Notes under the pieces: model-generated
Seen by the model: only the letters and a program-made list of their open reading frames with translations
Database searches by the model: none
What the model was told of the DNA's origin: nothing
Translations under genes and position numbers: made by a program
Shown here: one piece after another, positions 35,458 to 44,544 of the stretch
Layout of the letters: every line of letters begins with the position of its first letter
Numbering within the stretch: the first letter of the stretch is position 1
Source of the DNA: Erythrobacter sp.
Lineage (GTDB): Bacteria > Pseudomonadota > Alphaproteobacteria > Sphingomonadales > Sphingomonadaceae
DNA: 64,000 nt
NCBI GenBank assembly: GCA_039988235.1
Contig: JBDXKB010000004.1
Coordinates: 185,643 to 249,642 of the forward strand
Reading direction: 5' to 3'

Positions 35458-35796
35458 ATGAGCCAGAACCGACCAGTCTATCTAAAGCTGCGCGATCAAA
35501 TCGCGGCTGCCATTATCGAAGGCGCCTATGCCGAAGGGGCTATGCTGCCATCGGTGCGCGCGCTGGCGGCAGAACAAGGTGCAAACCCGCTGACGGTCGC
35601 CAAAGCCTACCAACAGTTCCAAAATGATGGCTTGGTAGAGGTCCAGCGCGGTGTTGGCATGTATGTCGTTCAAGGTGCCGCAGAGCGCTTGCGCTACGCC
35701 GAGCGGGAACAATTTTTGCAAGAAGAATGGCCTGAAATTCGCGCGCGGATGAACAGGTTGGGCATTGATCCGGCGGAACTGTCTGAAGACGCTTGA
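35458..35796 (+). CDS. GntR family (YtrA subfamily) transcriptional regulator
   Basis: PVYLKL, LPSVRALA, NPLTVAKAY, RGVG motifs with a short C-terminal domain. Confidence 0.92.
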   Translation: MSQNRPVYLKLRDQIAAAIIEGAYAEGAMLPSVRALAAEQGANPLTVAKAYQQFQNDGLVEVQRGVGMYVVQGAAERLRYAEREQFLQEEWPEIRARMNRLGIDPAELSEDA

Positions 35797-35985
35797 TTAT
35801 TTTGCAAACGCCGCAGATTAGTTGCGGCACATAAAAATTGCCTGTGCCAGCTTGCGGTCTCTCGCTCGCTCTGGCACCATCGGTAACTTGAGAACGAGCC
35901 GTTTCGGGTCGCAGAAATGGAACGCCGGATTGCAAAAGCAATTGGCATTCGATCGCAACCGAGAGGAAGCGATGCGGAGGTGGAA

Positions 35986-36267
35986 ATGATAAGATCCGAA
36001 TTGTTGCAGGCGCTCCAGGACGATAATCCTGAACTGCGCAGCGAAGAAATCGAACAAGTGGTCGACATCTTTTTTGACGAGATCGCCGAACGATTGGCCG
36101 AAGGTGGCCGCGTTGAATTGCGCGGCTTTGGTGCATTTTCGACCCGAGAACGCGAAGCGCGCAGAGGCCGCAATCCGCGCACTGGCGATGCGGTTGATGT
36201 ACCGGCCAAACGCGTGCCATATTTCAAAGCGGGCAAGGATATGCGTCGGCGCTTGAACGACGATTGA
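35986..36267 (+). CDS. ihfB: Integration host factor beta subunit
   Basis: [41 protein letters not shown] before ATG 35986. Confidence 0.95.
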
Positions 36268-36475: not shown

Positions 36476-36603
36476 TACATTAACCGCGATTTCGCGTTAT
36501 CTCCGTTTTAACCCGTAGGCTCCTATAGCGTCTCCGTTAGGTACAGCTGGCCTAACACATTCTGTGTGGTCAATCGGGGCCACTCAGCTTGGGGTATGCG
36601 ATT

Positions 36604-37230
36604 ATGGATCATACGGTGGTCAAGCCGGAATCCAATGATGGTGAGACAGAGGGGGCGGCCGAACTTCGGAGCGCGCCCCGTTTTTCGTTGCTCATCAGGG
36701 CGGCCAAGCTGGTCAGTGGCCAGGGCGAATTTGTCTGCGTGATCCGCGACGTTTCTGCCACCGGCATCAGCGTCAAACTGTTCCACAAACTGCCGCAGGG
36801 CGCAGAGCTGGACCTCGAACTGCAATGCGGTGAAGTCTATCGAATCAAATTGGTGTGGGAACGCGAAGGCGAGGCCGGATTTCAATTTGTTGAGCAAATC
36901 GATGTCGAACAATTTGTCTCTGAAGTGGGTAGCTTTCCCAAACGAGGCCTGCGTTTGAACATCGAAATCTCGACCACTGTCAAAACTCTGACAGAGCGGT
37001 CCGCAGCAACCATCAAGAACCTGTCCCAGCAAGGCGCGCGGTTCGAATGCGATACGATGTTCGCCCTTGATCAGAATTTGCGCATCGAAAATAATCGCAT
37101 GGGGGAGTTTTACGCCAAGGTTCGGTGGCGACGTGATGCCGAGTATGGCGTGGTGTTTGATGACGTCATGACACTGGGCGACTTTGCCCGCACTGCAGCC
37201 CGATTGCAGGCCCCAACGCTCATTGCCTAG
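36604..37230 (+). CDS. Tandem PilZ-domain protein (putative c-di-GMP receptor)
   Basis: RSAPR and DVSATG in domain 1; KRGLR and NLSQQG in domain 2. Confidence 0.88.
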   Translation: MDHTVVKPESNDGETEGAAELRSAPRFSLLIRAAKLVSGQGEFVCVIRDVSATGISVKLFHKLPQGAELDLELQCGEVYRIKLVWEREGEAGFQFVEQIDVEQFVSEVGSFPKRGLRLNIEISTTVKTLTERSAATIKNLSQQGARFECDTMFALDQNLRIENNRMGEFYAKVRWRRDAEYGVVFDDVMTLGDFARTAARLQAPTLIA

Positions 37231-37319
37231 CGCCAAGCAGCGCCTCAACTCATCTGGCGATTTTGCCCAATAATCTGGGTTTTGTTTACTTCTCGCTAAC
37301 CATTTTCGTTCACTCCCGC

Positions 37320-37345: not shown

Positions 37346-38938
37346 ATGGTCTCGACCACTACTGAAAATACCGGAATCATTGACGTTGATGTCGCCATCG
37401 TTGGCGCGGGGCCGGCCGGCCTGACAGCTGGCTATCTGCTGACCAAGCAAGGCAAGACCGTAGCCATCATCGAGAAAGATGAGGCCTATGTCGGCGGGAT
37501 CAGCCGCACGGTTGAGCACGAGGGCTATCGTTTTGACATTGGCGGGCATCGGTTTTTCTCCAAGAGCCAGCAAGTTGTCGATCTGTGGAACGAGATCTTG
37601 CCCGATGACTTTATCCAGCGCCCGCGGATGAGCCGGATCTATTACGAGGGTAAGTTCTATTCTTACCCTTTGCGCGCTTTCGAAGCGTTGGGCAATTTGG
37701 GCATTTTGCGGTCGACCGCCTGCATGCTGAGCTATCTGCGTTACAAGCTGTTCCCGATCAAGAACGTCAGAAGCTTTGAAGATTGGACCACAAACCAGTT
37801 CGGCAAAAAGCTCTATTCGATCTTTTTCAAGACCTATACCGAGAAGGTGTGGGGCATGCCGTGTGACGAGATGAGCGCCGATTGGGCAGCACAACGTATC
37901 AAAGGCCTGTCGCTGTGGAATGCTGTGATCGACGGGCTCAAGCGCTCTATGGGTCTGAACAAGAAGCCCAATGACGGGCAGGCTGTCAAAACCTTGCTCG
38001 AGACATTTCGTTATCCGCGGCTCGGCCCTGGCATGATGTGGGATGCTGCCCGCGACAAGATTATAGCAACGGGCAATGGCCAAATTCTGATGGGCCGTTC
38101 GCTCAAGCAATTGGCCAGCGATGGCAATGGCGGCTGGATCATGAGCGCAGAAGGCCCTGGCGGTGACGTGCAAATTCGCGCGAAACACGCGATTAGCTCG
38201 GCCCCGATGCGCGAGCTGTCTAAGCGCCTCCACCCATTGCCACAAAGCAGCTTGGAAGCGAGCAATTTGCGCTACCGAGACTTCCTGACCGTCGCTTTGA
38301 TGGTGAAATCGGAAGATTTGTTCCCAGACAATTGGATCTACATCCATGATGACCGGGTGCAAGTGGGCCGAGTCCAAAACTTCCGTAGCTGGTCACCTGA
38401 AATGGTACCAAGTGAAGATATGGCTTGCGTCGGACTTGAATATTTCTGTTTCGAAGGTGACGGATTGTGGTCTTCTGATGACAATGATCTGGTCGAATTG
38501 GCCAAGAAAGAAATGGCTATTCTTGGCCTGTGCGACCCGGACAAGGTTGAAAGCGGGGCGGTGGTCCGTCAGGAAAAAGCCTACCCGGTTTATGACGATG
38601 ATTATGAAGCCAATGTAGACGCCATGCGGCTGGAGTTGGAAGAGAAGTTTCCGTCCCTCCATATGGTCGGCCGCAATGGCATGCACCGCTACAACAATCA
38701 GGATCACGCCATGATGACGGCGATGCTGACGGTTGAAAATATCCTGGCGGGTGAGCGGGTTTACGATACGTGGTGCGTCAATGAAGACGCTGAATATCAC
38801 GAGGCCGGTGACGAAGGTGCAGAGAAGGTATTGCCTAGCCAATCTGGCGAGGCTGCAGCCAATCCTGTGACCGACGATCAAGCGGCGGCGTTGAATTCGG
38901 TGCGCGAAGTGCCAGAGCGGATTAAGAAGTCAGCCTGA
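37346..38938 (+). CDS. FAD-dependent oxidoreductase, UDP-galactopyranose-mutase/HemY-like
   Basis: GAGPAG, GG..RT..EGYRFDIGGHRFF, YPVYD, GRNGMHRYNNQDH. Confidence 0.85.
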   Translation: MVSTTTENTGIIDVDVAIVGAGPAGLTAGYLLTKQGKTVAIIEKDEAYVGGISRTVEHEGYRFDIGGHRFFSKSQQVVDLWNEILPDDFIQRPRMSRIYYEGKFYSYPLRAFEALGNLGILRSTACMLSYLRYKLFPIKNVRSFEDWTTNQFGKKLYSIFFKTYTEKVWGMPCDEMSADWAAQRIKGLSLWNAVIDGLKRSMGLNKKPNDGQAVKTLLETFRYPRLGPGMMWDAARDKIIATGNGQILMGRSLKQLASDGNGGWIMSAEGPGGDVQIRAKHAISSAPMRELSKRLHPLPQSSLEASNLRYRDFLTVALMVKSEDLFPDNWIYIHDDRVQVGRVQNFRSWSPEMVPSEDMACVGLEYFCFEGDGLWSSDDNDLVELAKKEMAILGLCDPDKVESGAVVRQEKAYPVYDDDYEANVDAMRLELEEKFPSLHMVGRNGMHRYNNQDHAMMTAMLTVENILAGERVYDTWCVNEDAEYHEAGDEGAEKVLPSQSGEAAANPVTDDQAAALNSVREVPERIKKSA

Positions 38939-38993
38939 TCAGGCTTGCACCAATCGGGTTTGAGTTCGTCGCGGCGATAGGGGGAAGTCGGTC

Positions 38994-39404
38994 ATGACGT
39001 TATTGGCCAAGCTGCAAGACATTCGCTTCATTCGCTATATTCTGGCGAGTGTTGGTGCGTTGGTGGTCGATTTCGGCAGCTTCCTCCTGATGCTTTCGAG
39101 CGGAACGAACGCTGCAATTGCTTCTGCATTTGGCTATTCCTTCGGGATTTTGGCGCATTGGGTGCTGTCCAGCAGGACAGTGTTTCAAGACACCGTCGCC
39201 CAAGAAGCGCGCGCGCGGACCAAGCAAAAGGCGCTGTTTGTCGTTTCGGCTCTGGTTGGGCTGGTGCTGACTGCGACCATCGTCGGCATTGCCGATGCTA
39301 GCGGCATTGATGCACGGGGAGCAAAACTGGTCGCGATCATCGTCAGTTTTTCAGTTACGTATTATCTGCGCGCCAAAGTTGTCTTTTCGAGCGAGCCGGA
39401 TTGA
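38994..39404 (+). CDS. GtrA family polyprenol-sugar flippase-like protein
   Basis: Four TM helices, RFIRYILASVGALVVDFG, LSSRTVF, KLVAIIVSFSVTY. Confidence 0.9.
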   Translation: MTLLAKLQDIRFIRYILASVGALVVDFGSFLLMLSSGTNAAIASAFGYSFGILAHWVLSSRTVFQDTVAQEARARTKQKALFVVSALVGLVLTATIVGIADASGIDARGAKLVAIIVSFSVTYYLRAKVVFSSEPD

Positions 39405-41263
39405 TGGTCGCTGATCGCCGCCTGCGAACGAACGAGAAGCCCAATCGGGCCATCCTGTTGTCGTGGATTGCGGTCTCTATCGTATTGCTGCTGATGACGG
39501 GGCCCTATGTTCTGGAGGGCCGCTATCCTGGTCCCGACGATTCGCTTCGTTTGGTTCAGGTCCGCGATTTATTGGCGGGACAAGGCTGGTACGACCTCCA
39601 CCAATATCGGATAACTCCTCCCGATGGCACGCTGATGCATTGGTCGCGGCTGGTTGATGCACCCATCGCTGCGCTGATTTGGTTGTTGTCCTTCTTTTTC
39701 GAACAATCCTTGGCAGAGCGAATTGCGATGGTGATCACGCCATTGCTGATCTTGTTGCTCATCATGGTAGCGATTGGCCGCTTGGCGTGGCGGATGTTTG
39801 ATACACAGATCGCTATCTTCGCCTGTCTTGTGCTGGCAGCTCTGCCGCCTATCGTTATGCAAACCCAACCGCTCAGGATCGACCATCACGCATGGCAGAT
39901 TTTTGCAGTGGCTCTGTCGGCATGGGCGCTGTCATGGCGTTCTCCGTTTAAGGGCGGGGCCGCGGCCGGGATCGCAATGGGTCTGGGCATGATGATTTCG
40001 CTCGAGACACTGCCGATGAGCGCGGCCTTCGCGCTGGTCTTGGGCCTGCGTTGGATGCGCAGCGACAAAGAACGCTGGTGGCTGGTCAGCTATATGCAGG
40101 CGTTGGCTGGATCCTTGGTGCTCGGCTTTGCCGCAACCAGAGGTTGGGCTGATTTGGCACCGCATTGCGATGTGATATCGCCCGCCCATCTCGGCCTGTT
40201 TTTGATCACAGCATTGGCCACCGGAGCTTTTGCGGCCGTCCCGTCTATGCCTCGCGTAGTGCTGGTAATTGGGATGGCGGCAGCTGGCGCATTGGGTGTC
40301 GCGTTCATGGCCTGGTCGACCCCGCAATGTATTGGCAATCCGTTCACCGATCTCGACCCTCTCGTGCGGCAGCATTGGTATGAGAGCGTGCTAGAGGGCC
40401 GGCCGATTTGGTTAGGCAATGTCGATGCATGGTTGCCAGCTATCATCCAGTCGGTGACGGCGCTGGTGGTTGCGCTTCGGCTCGGTTTGAAAGGGCGTGA
40501 CTGGGCGCGAGTATGGTGGTTTGAATACGCGCTGCTGCTGGGCCTTGCGATCTTGGGAGGGATTTTGACCGCACGATCTATCGCCTTTGCCTCTGCTTTG
40601 TCAGCAATTCCTCTAGCTTGGTTGCTCAACCGCATATTCAAATATTGGAAAACCAGCAGTGAAATCGGCCCGAAATTGGTCGCGGCCCTCGCCATTTATG
40701 CGATTTTCTTGTCCGCCGGACCATTGAAGCTCGCTCGAGAACAATTGGCGCCGCTGACCTCTAGCGATGGTGTTGTTACGACCACGCGCGAATCCAAATG
40801 CGAAATCCGCGAGAATGCGCCGCTGTTGAACCAATTGAAGCCAAGCACAGTGTTTGCACCGCTCGACATCGGGCCAGCTTTGTTGCTGAATTCGCATCAT
40901 AGCGTGGTCGCATCGGGTCATCATCGCGCCCAACCAGCCATGCGGGATGTGATCGTGGCCTTTACCAGCACTCCTGAGCAAGCGCGCCCGATCATCGTTG
41001 GTCGGGACGCCGACTATATTGTTGCCTGTATTGATCTAACCGAGGCGAGCAATCTTGCTGCTGGCGGCGGCAAGGCCTCACTGATGCATCAATTGATGAA
41101 CGGCAATGCGCCCGAGTGGCTGGAAATTGTCGAGGTGGGCGGCCCGGACGAGCTCAAAGTATGGAAGTTTGGTTCGCTACCAATTGCGGGACAAAATCCC
41201 GTGGCGCCTCTTTCTGAGGCTTCAATGCCGGATTCTCCAGCGCCTGCTGTTACGCCGGAATAA
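39404..41263 (+). CDS. GT-C fold membrane glycosyltransferase, STT3/AglB-like
   Basis: About 13 TM segments plus a C-terminal soluble domain. Motifs GPDD, RIDHH, SVLE, ARS and APLDIG. TGATG overlap with the GtrA gene. Confidence 0.72.
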   Translation: MVADRRLRTNEKPNRAILLSWIAVSIVLLLMTGPYVLEGRYPGPDDSLRLVQVRDLLAGQGWYDLHQYRITPPDGTLMHWSRLVDAPIAALIWLLSFFFEQSLAERIAMVITPLLILLLIMVAIGRLAWRMFDTQIAIFACLVLAALPPIVMQTQPLRIDHHAWQIFAVALSAWALSWRSPFKGGAAAGIAMGLGMMISLETLPMSAAFALVLGLRWMRSDKERWWLVSYMQALAGSLVLGFAATRGWADLAPHCDVISPAHLGLFLITALATGAFAAVPSMPRVVLVIGMAAAGALGVAFMAWSTPQCIGNPFTDLDPLVRQHWYESVLEGRPIWLGNVDAWLPAIIQSVTALVVALRLGLKGRDWARVWWFEYALLLGLAILGGILTARSIAFASALSAIPLAWLLNRIFKYWKTSSEIGPKLVAALAIYAIFLSAGPLKLAREQLAPLTSSDGVVTTTRESKCEIRENAPLLNQLKPSTVFAPLDIGPALLLNSHHSVVASGHHRAQPAMRDVIVAFTSTPEQARPIIVGRDADYIVACIDLTEASNLAAGGGKASLMHQLMNGNAPEWLEIVEVGGPDELKVWKFGSLPIAGQNPVAPLSEASMPDSPAPAVTPE

Positions 41264-41759
41264 AGTCCAACGCTGCGCCGTTAATGCAGTGCCGCTGACC
41301 GGTCGGCTTTGGGCCGTCACTGAAAATATGGCCCAAATGTCCGCCGCAATCGGCGCAATGCACCTCGGTGCGGGGGAAGCCGATCTTAAAGTCGCGTTTT
41401 GTGCCAACAGCGCTTTTGTCGATCGCAGCGTAAAAGCTGGGCCAGCCGCTGCGGCTGTCATATTTTGTTCTCGATGAATACAGCCTGTTGCCGCACCCCG
41501 CGCAAACGAAGGTGCCCTTGCGCTTTTCATTATCCAGAGGTGAAGAAAAGGCACGTTCGGTGCCTTCTTGGCGCAAGACGTAAAACTCGTCTTTGGTCAG
41601 TATGCGCGACCATTCGGCTTCGCTCTTCGAAACGCGGAATTTGGCCGAGCGCGCGCTGGCGCTTCCACATGCCGAAAGTAGGGGCAAAGATAGGGCAATG
41701 CCCAAACCACCACCCAGGCCGGACAGTACGTTTCGGCGGCCTGTCTGTTTGTCGCGCAT
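41250..41759 (-). CDS. msrB: Peptide-methionine (R)-S-oxide reductase with export signal
   Basis: GTERAF, CAGC, KYDSRSGWPSF, RTEVHCADCGGHLGHIFSDGP, RHCING. N-terminal RR motif and LSAC. Confidence 0.95.
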   Translation of the reverse strand: MRDKQTGRRNVLSGLGGGLGIALSLPLLSACGSASARSAKFRVSKSEAEWSRILTKDEFYVLRQEGTERAFSSPLDNEKRKGTFVCAGCGNRLYSSRTKYDSRSGWPSFYAAIDKSAVGTKRDFKIGFPRTEVHCADCGGHLGHIFSDGPKPTGQRHCINGAALDFIPA

Positions 41760-41848
41760 AACTATCACCCTTCAATTGTCTCAATACCCACAATGGTAAA
41801 TACGTGGGAACAGTTGGAAAGGTTTCACATTGTCAGAAAATGCGCAGC

Positions 41849-43162
41849 CTAAAACTCGGAAACTTCGACTTCTAGCTTGCGGAAACCATGGACGAAATTG
41901 GCGCGCACTCGCTCCACTTCGCCAACCACATCCACGCGCATCCGGCGCTTGTGCATTTCTTCCAGCAAAATCCGCAATTGCAGTTCGGCAAGACGCGCCC
42001 CAACACAGCGATGGATGCCATAGCCAAATGCAATGTGGCGACGTGCATTTTCGCGCGTCAGATCAATCTTGTCGGCATTTTCGAACACTTCTTCGTCGCG
42101 ATTGGCAGACAGATACCACATCACCAGCTTGTCGCCCTTTTTGATCTTCTGGCCAAACTGTTCGGTGTCTTCTGTTGCAGTGCGCCGCATATGGGCGAGC
42201 GGCGTCTGGTAACGGATACACTCCTGAACCGCGTTCGGGATCAAATCGGGATTTTCCTCGAACAATTTGCGCTGATCAGGGAATTTATCGAGACCATGGA
42301 TAATGCCCGACATGGTGTTGCGGGTGGTGTCGTTGCCGCCAACAATCAGCAGCACCAGATTGCCAATAAATTCGCGCGGATCCATCGCGCTCATCGCTTC
42401 TGAATGCAGCATCATAGAGATGAGATCATTGGTCGGCTCGGCCTGTGACCGCTCCTGCCACAACATCCCGAAATACATCGCCATTTCCTGTTGGATGGCG
42501 TCGCGTGTGTCGTCCAAAGCTGGTGCCAGTGCGAGTTCGGTATCGCCTGACCAATCCGACCAAAATGTCAGCAGCCGACGATCTTCCCAAGGGAAGCCGA
42601 ACAGAAGGGCCAGCATCCCGGTGGTCAATTCGATCGATACGGTATCGACCCAGTCGAACTTTTCGCCTCGGGGCAAGGAATCCAGCACCTCACCCGTGCG
42701 GGCGCGGATCTCTGTCTCCATGTCCGCCATATTGCTGGGCGTAAATTTGGGGGCAACAGTGCGGCGTTGTCCGGTGTGCTCGGGCCGGTCCATGGCGATA
42801 AACATCGGCAGCTCGCGCCCTTCTTCGGCCGGGCGCGGTTCGAGGATAGTGATGCCGCCATATTCCCAACTGGAGGAGAACAATTCGGGCAGGGCTTCGA
42901 TGTGTTGGATCGCCTTGTGGCCAACGACATTCCAATAAGGGCCAAATGGGCTGTCGGGCACATAGTGCAGCGGACCTTTGGCGCGCATTTCGGCAAAGAT
43001 CGGCTGCCAACGGTCCTCGGCATAGATGTCCGAACGGCTGACATCATAGGGATGAGTATGCTCCGGACGCTCGTCAGGATGCTCTGCGAAGTACTGGTCC
43101 AGCGCTTCGTGTGCCTGAGGACTGGTGCGCCATTGCGGCTTTTCCGGGGCGATAGTGGCCAT
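41849..43162 (-). CDS. Cytochrome P450 (CYP153-like)
   Basis: MFIAMD, VGGNDTT I-helix, ECIR, FGYGIHRCVG heme motif. Start at ATG 43162 after an AGGGAGAG RBS. Confidence 0.95.
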   Translation of the reverse strand: MATIAPEKPQWRTSPQAHEALDQYFAEHPDERPEHTHPYDVSRSDIYAEDRWQPIFAEMRAKGPLHYVPDSPFGPYWNVVGHKAIQHIEALPELFSSSWEYGGITILEPRPAEEGRELPMFIAMDRPEHTGQRRTVAPKFTPSNMADMETEIRARTGEVLDSLPRGEKFDWVDTVSIELTTGMLALLFGFPWEDRRLLTFWSDWSGDTELALAPALDDTRDAIQQEMAMYFGMLWQERSQAEPTNDLISMMLHSEAMSAMDPREFIGNLVLLIVGGNDTTRNTMSGIIHGLDKFPDQRKLFEENPDLIPNAVQECIRYQTPLAHMRRTATEDTEQFGQKIKKGDKLVMWYLSANRDEEVFENADKIDLTRENARRHIAFGYGIHRCVGARLAELQLRILLEEMHKRRMRVDVVGEVERVRANFVHGFRKLEVEVSEF

Positions 43163-43223
43163 AATTCTCTCCCTAGCAGGCGACTCGATTGGACGCCTGT
43201 CTCGTGTGATGTCCATCCTGCGT

Positions 43224-43245
43224 CTATTGACAGCCTTGTCAATAG
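43224..43245. promoter_or_regulatory. Perfect inverted repeat CTATTGACA-N4-TGTCAATAG (operator over a -35 hexamer)
   Basis: Exact 9-bp arms, each containing TTGACA, about 60 nt upstream of the P450 start. Confidence 0.65.
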
Positions 43246-43263
43246 TGAGTTGCGTTTTGCGAC

Positions 43264-44544
43264 TTAACTGGTTGAGCGCTTGAACTGATACCAACGGCGC
43301 TTGTTCGAATTGTGCCCGCCGCCGCCAGACTTCATCACCCGTTTGCGGAACAGGGTTGATCCCATCTTGATAAATATCGCCACCCACAAGGCTTGATAGC
43401 CAATCGCGATAAGGATCGGCCATATTTCCTCGCTCTGCGCCGCGCGTGCAGTCATCGCAAAGGGCGAGCTTAGCGGGAACAAAATTGCCATTGCCTCCAG
43501 CACTGGCGCGCCATCGATCAAGGTGAAGCTGGCGAAGAAGAAGATGAACAATTGAAGCATGGTCACTGGCATCGATAGCGTCTGCACCTCGCGAACCGTG
43601 CTGGCCAATGCGCCAATAGCGAGGAAGATCGAGCCGATCAGCAAATAGCCCATCGAGAAATTGACCACGAACAAGACACTGAACAATGGCCACCCAACGC
43701 CAGGATCGGGCATTCCCATCAGGGTTTGCTTAACATTGCCAAAGTCACTGCCCGACAAAATCACCAATCCGATGAGCGAGAACCACACCGCTATACCCAC
43801 CAGAGATACCGCGAGCATGGCAAACAGTTTGCCCAGGAATACGGCCTCCATCGGCAGAGCGGCGGCCAAGATTTCGATGATCTTGTTGGCTTTTTCCTCG
43901 ACCAGATTGGACAAGACCATTCCAGCCAACAGCATCATCAAAAGGAACAGCAAGGTCATGGATATTTGCGCTGTATCGCGGCGGCGATCCTTGGTGGTTG
44001 CTCCGCTTTTGGTGACCAGACTGGTGGATAGCGCGGGATAGGACACATCGGCTTGGTTGCGCGCAAGGGCCAAATGCATAGTGACATGACCGCTCCACAT
44101 GCGCAGCCTGTCTTGCGTGCCGGTTAGGATAGGCTCTTCGAGCGTTCCGGTTAGGGCGGCCCCGTAAATACCGCTGTTGTCGGCAATTAAGGCCTCTGGA
44201 TCAATCGTGTCATGGCCGTCTGCCGGGTCGAACAGATAGAAATGAGGAACGCCCCCGCGCCCCAATTCGCTTTCGATACGTTCATGTGCGGCTAGAATGG
44301 CGGCCATATCCTCGCTCGGCATTTGCAAAGCTATGCGGACATCGGGCGCGTTCTGGTTGGCCGCCGCGCCCAATCCGCCTGACATTCCGAACACAACAGC
44401 GGGAAACAGCGGGCCGAGCAGAAAGAATAGGAAGCTACGGCTGAAAAGAATTGCGACAAAGTCTCGCCGGGCAACGACCATCGCCGCCTGAAAATTGGAA
44501 AGCCGCGCCTTTTGGCTCATGTCGACTTCGTTGGAAGCGCTCAT
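43264..44544 (-). CDS. ABC transporter permease (NatB/YhaP-like)
   Basis: LVEEKANKIIEILAA..FLGK motif and six TM segments. Confidence 0.9.
   Translation of the reverse strand: MSASNEVDMSQKARLSNFQAAMVVARRDFVAILFSRSFLFFLLGPLFPAVVFGMSGGLGAAANQNAPDVRIALQMPSEDMAAILAAHERIESELGRGGVPHFYLFDPADGHDTIDPEALIADNSGIYGAALTGTLEEPILTGTQDRLRMWSGHVTMHLALARNQADVSYPALSTSLVTKSGATTKDRRRDTAQISMTLLFLLMMLLAGMVLSNLVEEKANKIIEILAAALPMEAVFLGKLFAMLAVSLVGIAVWFSLIGLVILSGSDFGNVKQTLMGMPDPGVGWPLFSVLFVVNFSMGYLLIGSIFLAIGALASTVREVQTLSMPVTMLQLFIFFFASFTLIDGAPVLEAMAILFPLSSPFAMTARAAQSEEIWPILIAIGYQALWVAIFIKMGSTLFRKRVMKSGGGGHNSNKRRWYQFKRSTS

Follow-up and report, generated by a model that had tools for sequence, protein, structure and literature searches.

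Three-component systems for glycosylation outside the cytoplasm are known from the GtrA/GtrB/GtrV proteins of Shigella and Salmonella phages and from CsbB/GtcA/YfhO of Gram-positives (PMC8035078). A pentofuranose system composed of a polyprenyl-phosphoribose synthase, a MATE flippase and a GT136 transferase has been described by Kelly et al. 2024 (PMC11127046). The subject of this analysis is a locus of Erythrobacter sp. (GCA_039988235.1, contig JBDXKB010000004.1, positions 185,643 to 249,642 of the forward strand; this whole stretch of 64,000 nt is called the window below) in which a flavoenzyme, a GtrA-family protein and a 619-residue glycosyltransferase of the GT-C fold are encoded one after the other (Table 1). 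With a probability of about 0.5, this triplet is the core of a lipid-carrier system in which a furanose sugar is transferred, outside the cytoplasm, to an acceptor other than the N-x-S/T sequon. We infer the donor, the furanose nature of the sugar, its polyprenol-monophosphate carrier and the acceptor.

The locus resembles the Gtr and CsbB systems in that a GtrA-family protein adjoins a GT-C transferase whose model places its active side outside the cytoplasm, and in that a GtrB-sized family 2 glycosyltransferase (GT2) belongs to the operon in some lineages of the window's family. It differs from them by a flavoenzyme standing in the place of the GT2 in the window operon, by a GT-C protein that is akin to oligosaccharyltransferases (OSTs) and not to GtrV or YfhO, and by not being phage-borne. 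Indeed, the module had no match among phages, and among plasmids it was found on four large secondary replicons only. The system of Kelly et al. 2024 is the closest published concept: there, too, a GT-C enzyme working outside the cytoplasm adds a furanose taken from a lipid-linked donor, and auxiliary enzymes diversify the sugar. However, the enzymes differ at every step: its donor is made from phosphoribosyl pyrophosphate by a UbiA-type synthase and moved by a MATE transporter, flavin mutase and GtrA are both missing, and the GT-C protein is of another family.

The 619-residue membrane protein is very probably a GT-C homologue of AglB and STT3 that lacks the sequon pocket, as judged mainly from its predicted structure. 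The AlphaFold (AF2) model built from 25 homologues has a pLDDT (predicted local distance difference test) of 88.8 and a pTM (predicted TM score) of 0.89. When it was compared with the PDB by Foldseek, the 15 best matches were all OST catalytic subunits, and so were 19 of the 21 matches below E 1e-3, the other two being DPY19 (TM 0.60, E 2e-7). The OST matches comprise human STT3A/B, Archaeoglobus fulgidus AglB, yeast Stt3 and PglB, with TM scores of 0.51-0.64 (query) and E-values down to 2e-10. The predicted chain has the GT-C fold and 13 membrane helices, with a basic N-terminus inside and a C-terminal domain outside, as in the GT66 OSTs (AglB/STT3/PglB; PDB 7e9s, 3waj, 6s7o, 6s7t, 8age, 5ogl), which likewise consist of a 13-helix core and a C-terminal globular domain. 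The alternating topology would put all the motif residues discussed below, together with four near-invariant cysteines, on the outer side. Two differences from the GT66 enzymes are evident: the C-terminal domain of the window protein has only about 150 residues, and its genetic partners are GtrA and a mutase-like flavoenzyme instead of an assembly pathway for lipid-linked oligosaccharides.

In A. fulgidus AglB, the metal ligand Asp47, the Asp161-His-His163 motif and Glu360 of the TIXE motif are followed by WWDYG, DGGK and DK/MI; His81 and Arg426 lie near the phosphate site, and WWDYG and DK/MI build the pocket for the sequon Ser/Thr (PMC8342417). D45 of the window protein matches the place of Asp47 in the chain. 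D45/D46, H79, D160-H-H162, E331 and R391 occur in the order of AglB and at nearly the same numbers, each being kept in at least 132 of 134 diverse representatives of the family (27-46% identity). The individual counts among these 134 are 133 for D45, 132 for D46, 134 for R49, 133 for H79, 134 each for D160 and H161, 132 for H162, 134 for E201, 133 for W325, 107 for V329, 132 for E331, 128 for G332, 130 for P334, 133 for R391, 129 for D488, and 133 each for H507 and R508. This conservation is far above chance. G43 in the first external loop (EL1) is a local variant of an Asp found in 114 of the 134, so that the family motif reads D-P-D-D-x-L-R. The EL5 motif lies in a long outer loop (residues 306-339, between helices 9 and 10); its family form is W-Y-x-x-V-x-E-G-x-P-x-W, in which S328 and L330 are variable.

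The C-terminal domain is the part of the protein in which the likeness to OSTs can be followed by sequence. Here the window protein reads T482-V-F-A-P486-L-D488-I-G490. In hhalign comparisons with fungal STT3 (real database proteins, retrieved with yeast Stt3 as bait), F-A-P-L-D-I-G is set on A-W-W-D-Y-G-Y, and the following family stretch AFTSxPExARxII..xADYVV on AMxSPEExSYEILKxHDVDYVLV, so that the alignment spans the WWDYG strand and the next helix. The P-value was 1.5e-3 with a shallow profile, 4.9e-4 with 138 representatives and 1.2e-4 with the C-terminal domain alone. A hidden Markov model (HMM) of the 134 sequences retrieved ten PDB sequences at E<=10, seven of which are OSTs. It matched the isolated C-terminal domains of AglB-S1 and AglB-S2 weakly (E 0.037 and 0.097), PLD once more falling on WWD; STT3A, also weakly, with residues 109-542 on 117-580; and AglB-L at a weak E of 7.5, with 106-185 on 106-186. 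The weak sequence alignments and the fold agree on a single register, and the homology of the membrane core to OSTs is predicted on the basis of fold, order and spacing. The initial annotation had named an STT3/AglB-like transferase with its motifs numbered from the ATG at 39404, and had noted the replacement of WWD by PLD. Every residue is where it had been placed; OST catalytic subunits are the top fold matches and the family HMM picks AglB and STT3A; three independent alignments set P486-L-D488 on W-W-D.

The replacement extends to the whole family. No Trp occurs at position 486 or 487 in any of the 134 relatives, the former being P, Q, G, A or T and the latter L, I, F, M or V. A-P-L-D-I-G stands at the positions aligned with WWDYG and retains the Asp alone. 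Neither DxxK nor MxxI, the two forms of the DK/MI motif, is present in the family, which has C542-P-x-x-x-E547 after the Y-V-V strand instead, and the place of DGGK/DNXTZNX(T/S) is taken by G-H-H-R(N). This change goes back to the ancestor of the family and does not reflect decay in this strain. Because the two tryptophans of WWDYG and the DK/MI pocket are missing, the family appears unable to read N-x-S/T in the known way.

Profile searches with established models do not recover this family. The Pfam STT3 model (PF02516) had no match at E<=10 in 25 members or in the whole genome, PF21436 (the STT3 core-domain model) did not detect the family, the archaeal STT3 model TIGR04154 scored 19 bits against a cut-off of 450, and sequence searches of the PDB with the single protein or with a 25-sequence profile gave nothing significant. 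The only Pfam hit was a sub-threshold one to PMT_2 (1e-4), shared by 4 of 25 members. Some relatives are named 'ArnT family glycosyltransferase' or 'RgtA/B/C/D-like' in databases, and a few are mis-named 'AcrB/AcrD/AcrF'. It could be argued from the first two names and the PMT_2 hit that the protein is an ordinary ArnT- or PMT-type transferase acting on lipid or protein, its OST likeness being that of any GT-C fold; the EptA/LtaS-like gene found in the operon in 11 of 80 loci (see below) recalls the joint action of ArnT and EptA on lipid A. Yet ArnT reaches a TM score of only 0.34-0.46 against the model, compared with the 0.51-0.64 of the OSTs, and ALG9 and AftA are likewise far behind. Moreover, the C-terminal domain is specifically homologous to the WWDYG domain of OSTs, and the second DXD motif is Asp-His-His as in AglB. 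We therefore rejected the identity given by the database names and PMT_2, and consider an ordinary ArnT/PMT-type enzyme very unlikely.

A second alternative takes the fold at face value. The protein would be a true OST that transfers a preassembled glycan from undecaprenyl diphosphate to protein Asn by a signal other than N-x-S/T; the mutase would supply one sugar of that glycan, and unlinked cytoplasmic transferases would assemble it. The nearest folds are all N-OSTs, the candidate equivalents of the AglB Asp/Glu pair, metal ligands and His/Arg phosphate site are retained, as is D488 of the WWD, and no GT2 would be required in the operon. We nevertheless regard this as quite unlikely. GtrA proteins, which adjoin the transferase in most loci, are typical partners of systems using monophosphate-linked single sugars, some lineages have a GtrB-sized GT2 gene in the operon, neither a Wzx-type flippase nor an initiating phosphoglycosyltransferase was seen nearby, and the Ser/Thr pocket is lost in all members. 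In addition, the C-mannosyltransferase DPY19 (PDB 7zlg, 7zli), the second-best fold class, has a nearly equal fold score. DPY19 is an OST-like GT-C enzyme that uses a monophosphate-linked single sugar (Dol25-P-Man is named in the PDB title) and an acceptor other than Asn. Unlike the window protein it is eukaryotic and modifies the Trp of WxxW, and no match between the two was found at the level of sequence.

The flavoenzyme is probably a nucleotide-sugar pyranose/furanose mutase, and within the proposed system the role of ring mutase is a likely one. Over its full length it belongs to NCBIfam NF005545 (PRK07208.1-1; 920 bits, where the cut-off is 451, with positions 7-503 of the 504 in the profile covered), a family curated as 'hypothetical protein' with no assigned function. 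Its best PDB match by sequence is the UDP-galactopyranose mutase (UGM) of Aspergillus fumigatus, with an E-value of 2e-21 for the single sequence and 6e-42 for a 21-sequence family profile, which also covers Trypanosoma cruzi UGM over 13-470. The model (pLDDT 83.9), which has the three-domain, FAD-binding fold of the UGMs, gives the same result: the top 34 Foldseek matches are A. fumigatus or T. cruzi UGM (E around 1e-33; TM 0.72-0.74 by query and up to 0.84 by target), and short bacterial UGMs reach a TM of 0.57. The genome contains no canonical Glf. With the eukaryote-type enzymes (A. fumigatus 3ute/3ukh, T. cruzi 4dsg) the protein shares the long-form architecture; it differs from them by an identity of only 21-23%, by a GR...Y..NQDH loop that is two residues shorter and by an acidic tail that eukaryotic UGMs do not have. 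This C-terminal tail (residues 488-530, about 43 residues) is modelled with low confidence or as disordered, apart from a short predicted helix at 510-517; it could dock a membrane partner.

The GGH loop and the Arg/Tyr set that serves diphosphate and sugar in eukaryote-type UGMs are present. On native A. fumigatus numbering, derived from the printed alignment (chain index minus 3), the pairs H63=H68, F66=F71, Y104=Y107, F158=F160, Y162=Y164, W167=W169, R182=R184, W315=W330, Y317=Y332, R327=R342, Y419=Y413, R447=R443, Y453=Y449 and N457=N451 are kept. All 21 sequences of the alignment have H68, R184, W330, Y332, R342, Y413, R443 and Y449, and at least 90% have N451. Four residues on the nucleotide side are changed (F106 to L109, Q107 to R110, N163 to T165 and Y334 to W349), whereas the uridine-binding Y104, F158, Y162 and W167 are among those kept. 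In UGMs the His loop lies at the flavin N5, Arg and Tyr contact the diphosphate, and Phe, Gln and Asn contact the uracil. The protein thus reads, from its residues, as having a mutase-type active site with an altered pocket for the nucleotide or carrier.

This last feature raises the possibility that the flavoenzyme works with GtrA at the membrane, on a lipid-linked sugar (by ring contraction, oxidation or epimerisation) or on the polyprenol chain itself; as to the transferase, this alternative overlaps with the system proposed above. A comparable logic is that of DprE1/DprE2, which act on decaprenyl-phosphoribose. Flavoenzyme and GtrA are the tightest pair of the module (adjacent in 72 of 76 loci), and they also occur together in genome G363 with no GT-C gene nearby. 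Several uracil contacts are altered (F106L, Q107R, N163T), and the enzyme scores below the cut-offs of Pfam GLF (17.5 against 26.3 bits) and TIGR00031 (55 against 304). Protoporphyrinogen oxidases are next by fold (E around 1e-27, TM 0.70), and they and the carotenoid desaturases, which are close neighbours too, act on lipids. Finally, PF04138 is, by its Pfam name, also the membrane domain of polyprenol-phosphate sugar synthases. Against a lipid-linked substrate, the UGM residues at the diphosphate, at the sugar and flanking the flavin N5 are all invariant, UGMs lead the oxidases in Foldseek E-value, by about six orders of magnitude, and in identity, with 21-23% against 14-18%, and no membrane segment is predicted in the flavoenzyme. 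Such a substrate is doubtful in our view, and we favour a nucleotide sugar.

The altered uracil contacts, the sub-threshold GLF and TIGR00031 scores and the proximity of the oxidases all weigh against the proposed furanose system, as do several points concerning the other two proteins. In local hhalign comparisons with fungal STT3, the segments around EL1, DHH, EL5 and R391 gave no significant or in-register alignment, and only the C-terminal domain aligns; a profile of the N-terminal part alone (40 sequences) had no PDB match at E<=10. A diphosphate-linked oligosaccharide would fit the H79/R391 site no less well than a monophosphate-linked sugar. The window operon has no GtrB-type GT2, as had been stated in the initial annotation, and the role of GtrA as a flippase is itself not firmly established. 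One GT2-GtrA fusion is encoded elsewhere in the genome, but it plausibly serves a PMT-family GT-C protein, because the two genes adjoin convergently, and it is at most a candidate for the loading enzyme of the operon. Lastly, no furanose-containing sphingomonad glycoconjugate was found in the literature, and neither PRK07208, nor UGM-like bacterial enzymes, nor an STT3-like family of alphaproteobacteria was the subject of any paper found.

The GtrA protein of the operon is a clear member of its family (Pfam GtrA_DPMS_TM, PF04138, 2.8e-15; 57 bits against a cut-off of 26.1, covering profile positions 1-117 of 117). Elsewhere in the genome there are ten GT2 matches; GtrA domains number two in all, that of the operon and that of the fusion. 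This fusion (396 residues, with a DPMS-like architecture; contig C5:716799-719274, L040:8800-11274) is convergent with a PMT-family GT-C protein of 426 residues. The two look like a second, separate lipid-carrier glycosylation pair, possibly resembling protein O-mannosylation.

The strongest hint at a polyprenol-monophosphate sugar as the donor of the family comes from loci in which the loading enzyme would be part of the operon. At three of the 80 loci, in Sphingomonas, Sphingomicrobium and Allosphingosinicella, the strand run of the triplet goes on to a GtrB-sized GT2 of 338 residues, the C-terminal part of which is membrane-like. Two of the three have a paralogous GT-C gene after it, and at a fourth locus a related GT2 is encoded on the opposite strand. 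At the first three loci (L149:8794-12121, L156:8828-11397 and L159), the triplet continues into an open reading frame (ORF) of about 520 codons with no Pfam match and the 338-residue GT2. In Allosphingosinicella another such ORF, of 238 codons, separates the GT2 from the second GT-C gene; Sphingomonas also has a second GT-C gene.

The conservation of the triplet over Sphingomonadales, which had been proposed as a check, is extensive. A sample of the GTDB order comprised 27 genomes of the window's family and 93 of other families; the GT-C gene was present in 24 of the former and in none of the latter. Gene order was compared at 80 named loci from Qipengyuania, Erythrobacter, Pontixanthobacter, Novosphingobium, Croceicoccus, Blastomonas, Sphingorhabdus, Sphingopyxis, Sphingobium, Sphingomonas and others. 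The flavoenzyme gene lies directly upstream of the GT-C gene on the same strand in 76 of them (two of the four exceptions are on truncated contigs), and in 72 of these 76 the GtrA gene lies between the two. The commonest layout, found at 18 loci, is that of the window: GntR-HU-PilZ-flavoenzyme-GtrA-GT-C, then convergent MsrB and P450. About six loci have a second GT-C gene in tandem, and five have a downstream GT2, four of them with a paralogous GT-C gene. The protein family is large, with 1,269 matches, nearly all unnamed or hypothetical, in a collection clustered at 90%, and at least 1,051 clusters at 50% identity (E<1e-30, full-length matches). The flavoenzyme is 82-89% identical between genera whose transferases are 45-57% identical. 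This contrast suggests a fixed donor and evolving acceptors.

Over the class as a whole both gene families are patchily distributed. Among 251 genomes, the GT-C protein was found in 19 and the flavoenzyme in 16; the two co-occur in six, including that of the window, where about one would be expected, a contrast that is inflated by the relatedness of the genomes. They are neighbours in three unrelated alphaproteobacterial families (genomes G283, G188 and G172). In G283 the run is YfhO-like GT-C, GT2, GT-C, GT-C and flavoenzyme; in G188 the two genes are convergent. The partner in G172 is a distant, full-length homologue of 606 residues (hhalign E 1e-21) with a weak match of its own to the Pfam STT3 model PF02516 (E 0.006). 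This homologue (L063:5939-7756, minus strand) has Asn in place of D160 (A-N-H-H) and, to judge by that residue, may be inactive or have another metal geometry. In G363 (L061:7139-12589, minus strand) a GT2, a NodU/CmcH-type carbamoyltransferase, GtrA and the flavoenzyme are encoded together, which suggests a carbamoylated sugar in that lineage. In S. parapaucimobilis a paralogous GT-C protein with no flavoenzyme stands beside GtrA and a methyltransferase; elsewhere such a paralogue is paired with a GT2. Among the control genomes, the Pfam STT3 model matches Caulobacter vibrioides, a model organism that probably has a related STT3-like protein and might be a handy system for its study.

These data lead to the following model of the furanose system. 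The reduced flavoenzyme would interconvert the pyranose and furanose forms of an NDP-sugar in the cytoplasm, as its fungal and trypanosomal homologues do. A GT2 encoded outside the operon would load the sugar onto undecaprenyl phosphate, and GtrA, by analogy with its family, would help the lipid-linked sugar to reach the outer face of the inner membrane. There the GT-C protein would bind the carrier phosphate through H79 and R391 and hold a divalent metal by D45/D46 and D160/H162, with E331 contributed by the long outer loop, and would transfer the sugar to a periplasmic acceptor other than the N-x-S/T sequon. The PilZ protein encoded upstream may couple this activity to cyclic di-GMP (c-di-GMP).

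In this model a sequon is excluded as acceptor by the family-wide absence of the WWDYG tryptophans and the DK/MI pocket. The sugar could instead go to a glycolipid or glycan of the envelope, or to a different kind of protein site. The envelope molecules are weakly favoured over protein because sphingomonads are known to have no lipopolysaccharide (LPS), because an EptA/LtaS-like gene recurs in the operon and because the GT-C gene duplicates and diverges fast. The recurring gene encodes a sulfatase-family membrane protein and occurs within the operon in 11 of the 80 loci, at two different positions, suggesting either further decoration of the product or a common envelope molecule on which the two enzymes act. 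Proteins of this kind, EptA/LtaS/OpgB-like and of about 460 residues, were seen at L081 (6633-8018, minus strand), L093, L095, L121, L141, L142 and L144, and further at L151, L153, L155, L160 and L163.

A more radical view sees in the transferase a bacterial offshoot of the N-glycosylation enzymes that kept the amide-activating Asp/Glu, metal and phosphate sites and acquired a new pocket made of P-L-D, G-H-H-R and the Cys/Glu helix. It would be sequon-independent and serve a new class of acceptor, either protein Asn in other surroundings or the outer-membrane glycolipids, built on sphingolipid, that these bacteria have instead of LPS, with the flavin mutase and GtrA acting on a lipid-linked instead of a nucleotide-linked sugar. 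We hold this combination to be unlikely.

To our knowledge, OST-type enzymes of bacteria are known essentially as the PglB of Campylobacter-like and Desulfovibrio-like organisms. The present family is a large one with the predicted fold and the candidate catalytic residues of OSTs and a different acceptor pocket, and it is near-universal in one family of Sphingomonadales. The proposed function would show that the OST scaffold has been re-used for another acceptor and would provide glycoengineers with a transferase of new specificity. If ring contraction, or another activity, were assigned to PRK07208, thousands of genes would gain an annotation. Furanose sugars, which as far as we know animals do not have, could also come to light in the envelopes of bacteria that are common in the environment. 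The target may belong to the poorly understood glycosphingolipid envelope of the LPS-less sphingomonads, and the link to PilZ suggests that envelope glycosylation is under c-di-GMP control.

Table 1. Features of the locus, in window positions, with residues of the GT-C protein numbered from its ATG.
Feature	Positions	Strand	Remarks
GntR-family regulator (112 aa) and HU/IHF-type DNA-binding protein (116 aa)	35458-36267	+	ahead of PilZ
PilZ-domain protein	36589-37230	+	213 aa; Pfam PilZ 3.1e-19, two stretches
Hairpin	37265-37280		weak, terminator-like
Flavoenzyme ORF	37346-38938	+	530 aa
Flavoenzyme C-terminal tail, residues 488-530	38807-38938	+	acidic
GtrA-family ORF	38994-39404	+	136 aa
AglB/STT3-like GT-C ORF	39404-41263	+	619 aa from ATG
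EL1 motif G43-P-D45-D46-S-L-R49	39530-39550	+	candidate metal ligand or catalytic Asp
R158-I-D160-H161-H162	39875-39889	+	same letters as the second DXD motif of AglB, Asp161-His-His163
EL5 motif W325-Y-E-S-V-L-E331-G-R-P-I-W336	40376-40411	+	candidate TIXE/SVSE equivalent
R391	40574-40576	+	candidate phosphate-binding Arg (AglB Arg426 position); outer end of helix 12
C-terminal core P486-L-D488-I-G490, then G505-H-H-R508	40859-40927	+	places of WWDYG and DGGK/DNXTZNX(T/S)
MsrB (SelR)	41250-41768	-	converges on the GT-C gene
Cytochrome P450 and ABC-2 transporter pair	41849-43693	-	after MsrB

The arrangement of the triplet had been described beforehand as three co-oriented genes, the last two overlapping as TGATG, and both the ORF calls and the reading of the junction agree with this. 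The GtrA/GT-C junction is GGATTGATGGTC, where the GtrA stop codon TGA (39402-39404) and the ATG at 39404 share one base; an alternative TTG start at 39401 is likewise in the open frame. The flavoprotein motifs reported at that stage, GGH and GR..xxYxNQDH, are indeed there as D-I-G-G66-G67-H68-R-F-F and G442-R-N-G-M-H-R-Y449-N-N-Q-D-H454, and the mutase-like nature claimed for the enzyme is borne out by eukaryote-type UGMs being the best matches in sequence and fold, with their active-site residues retained. The G+C content of the region is ordinary throughout.

The PilZ gene stands directly ahead of the module, on the same strand, in 41 of the 80 named loci and at 6 of 14 genome loci, and also in Pontixanthobacter. 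Its product is a possible c-di-GMP-responsive regulator of the module. In the window, 115 bp separate it from the flavoenzyme gene; because of this gap and the weak hairpin within it, co-transcription is uncertain. The GntR and HU/IHF genes accompany the module at roughly half of the named loci; a regulatory role for them would be conjecture from gene order. At the other end, the MsrB ORF overlaps the 3' end of the GT-C gene by 14 bp. The MsrB/P450/ABC-2 block, the functional link of which is not obvious, adjoins the module in many genera.

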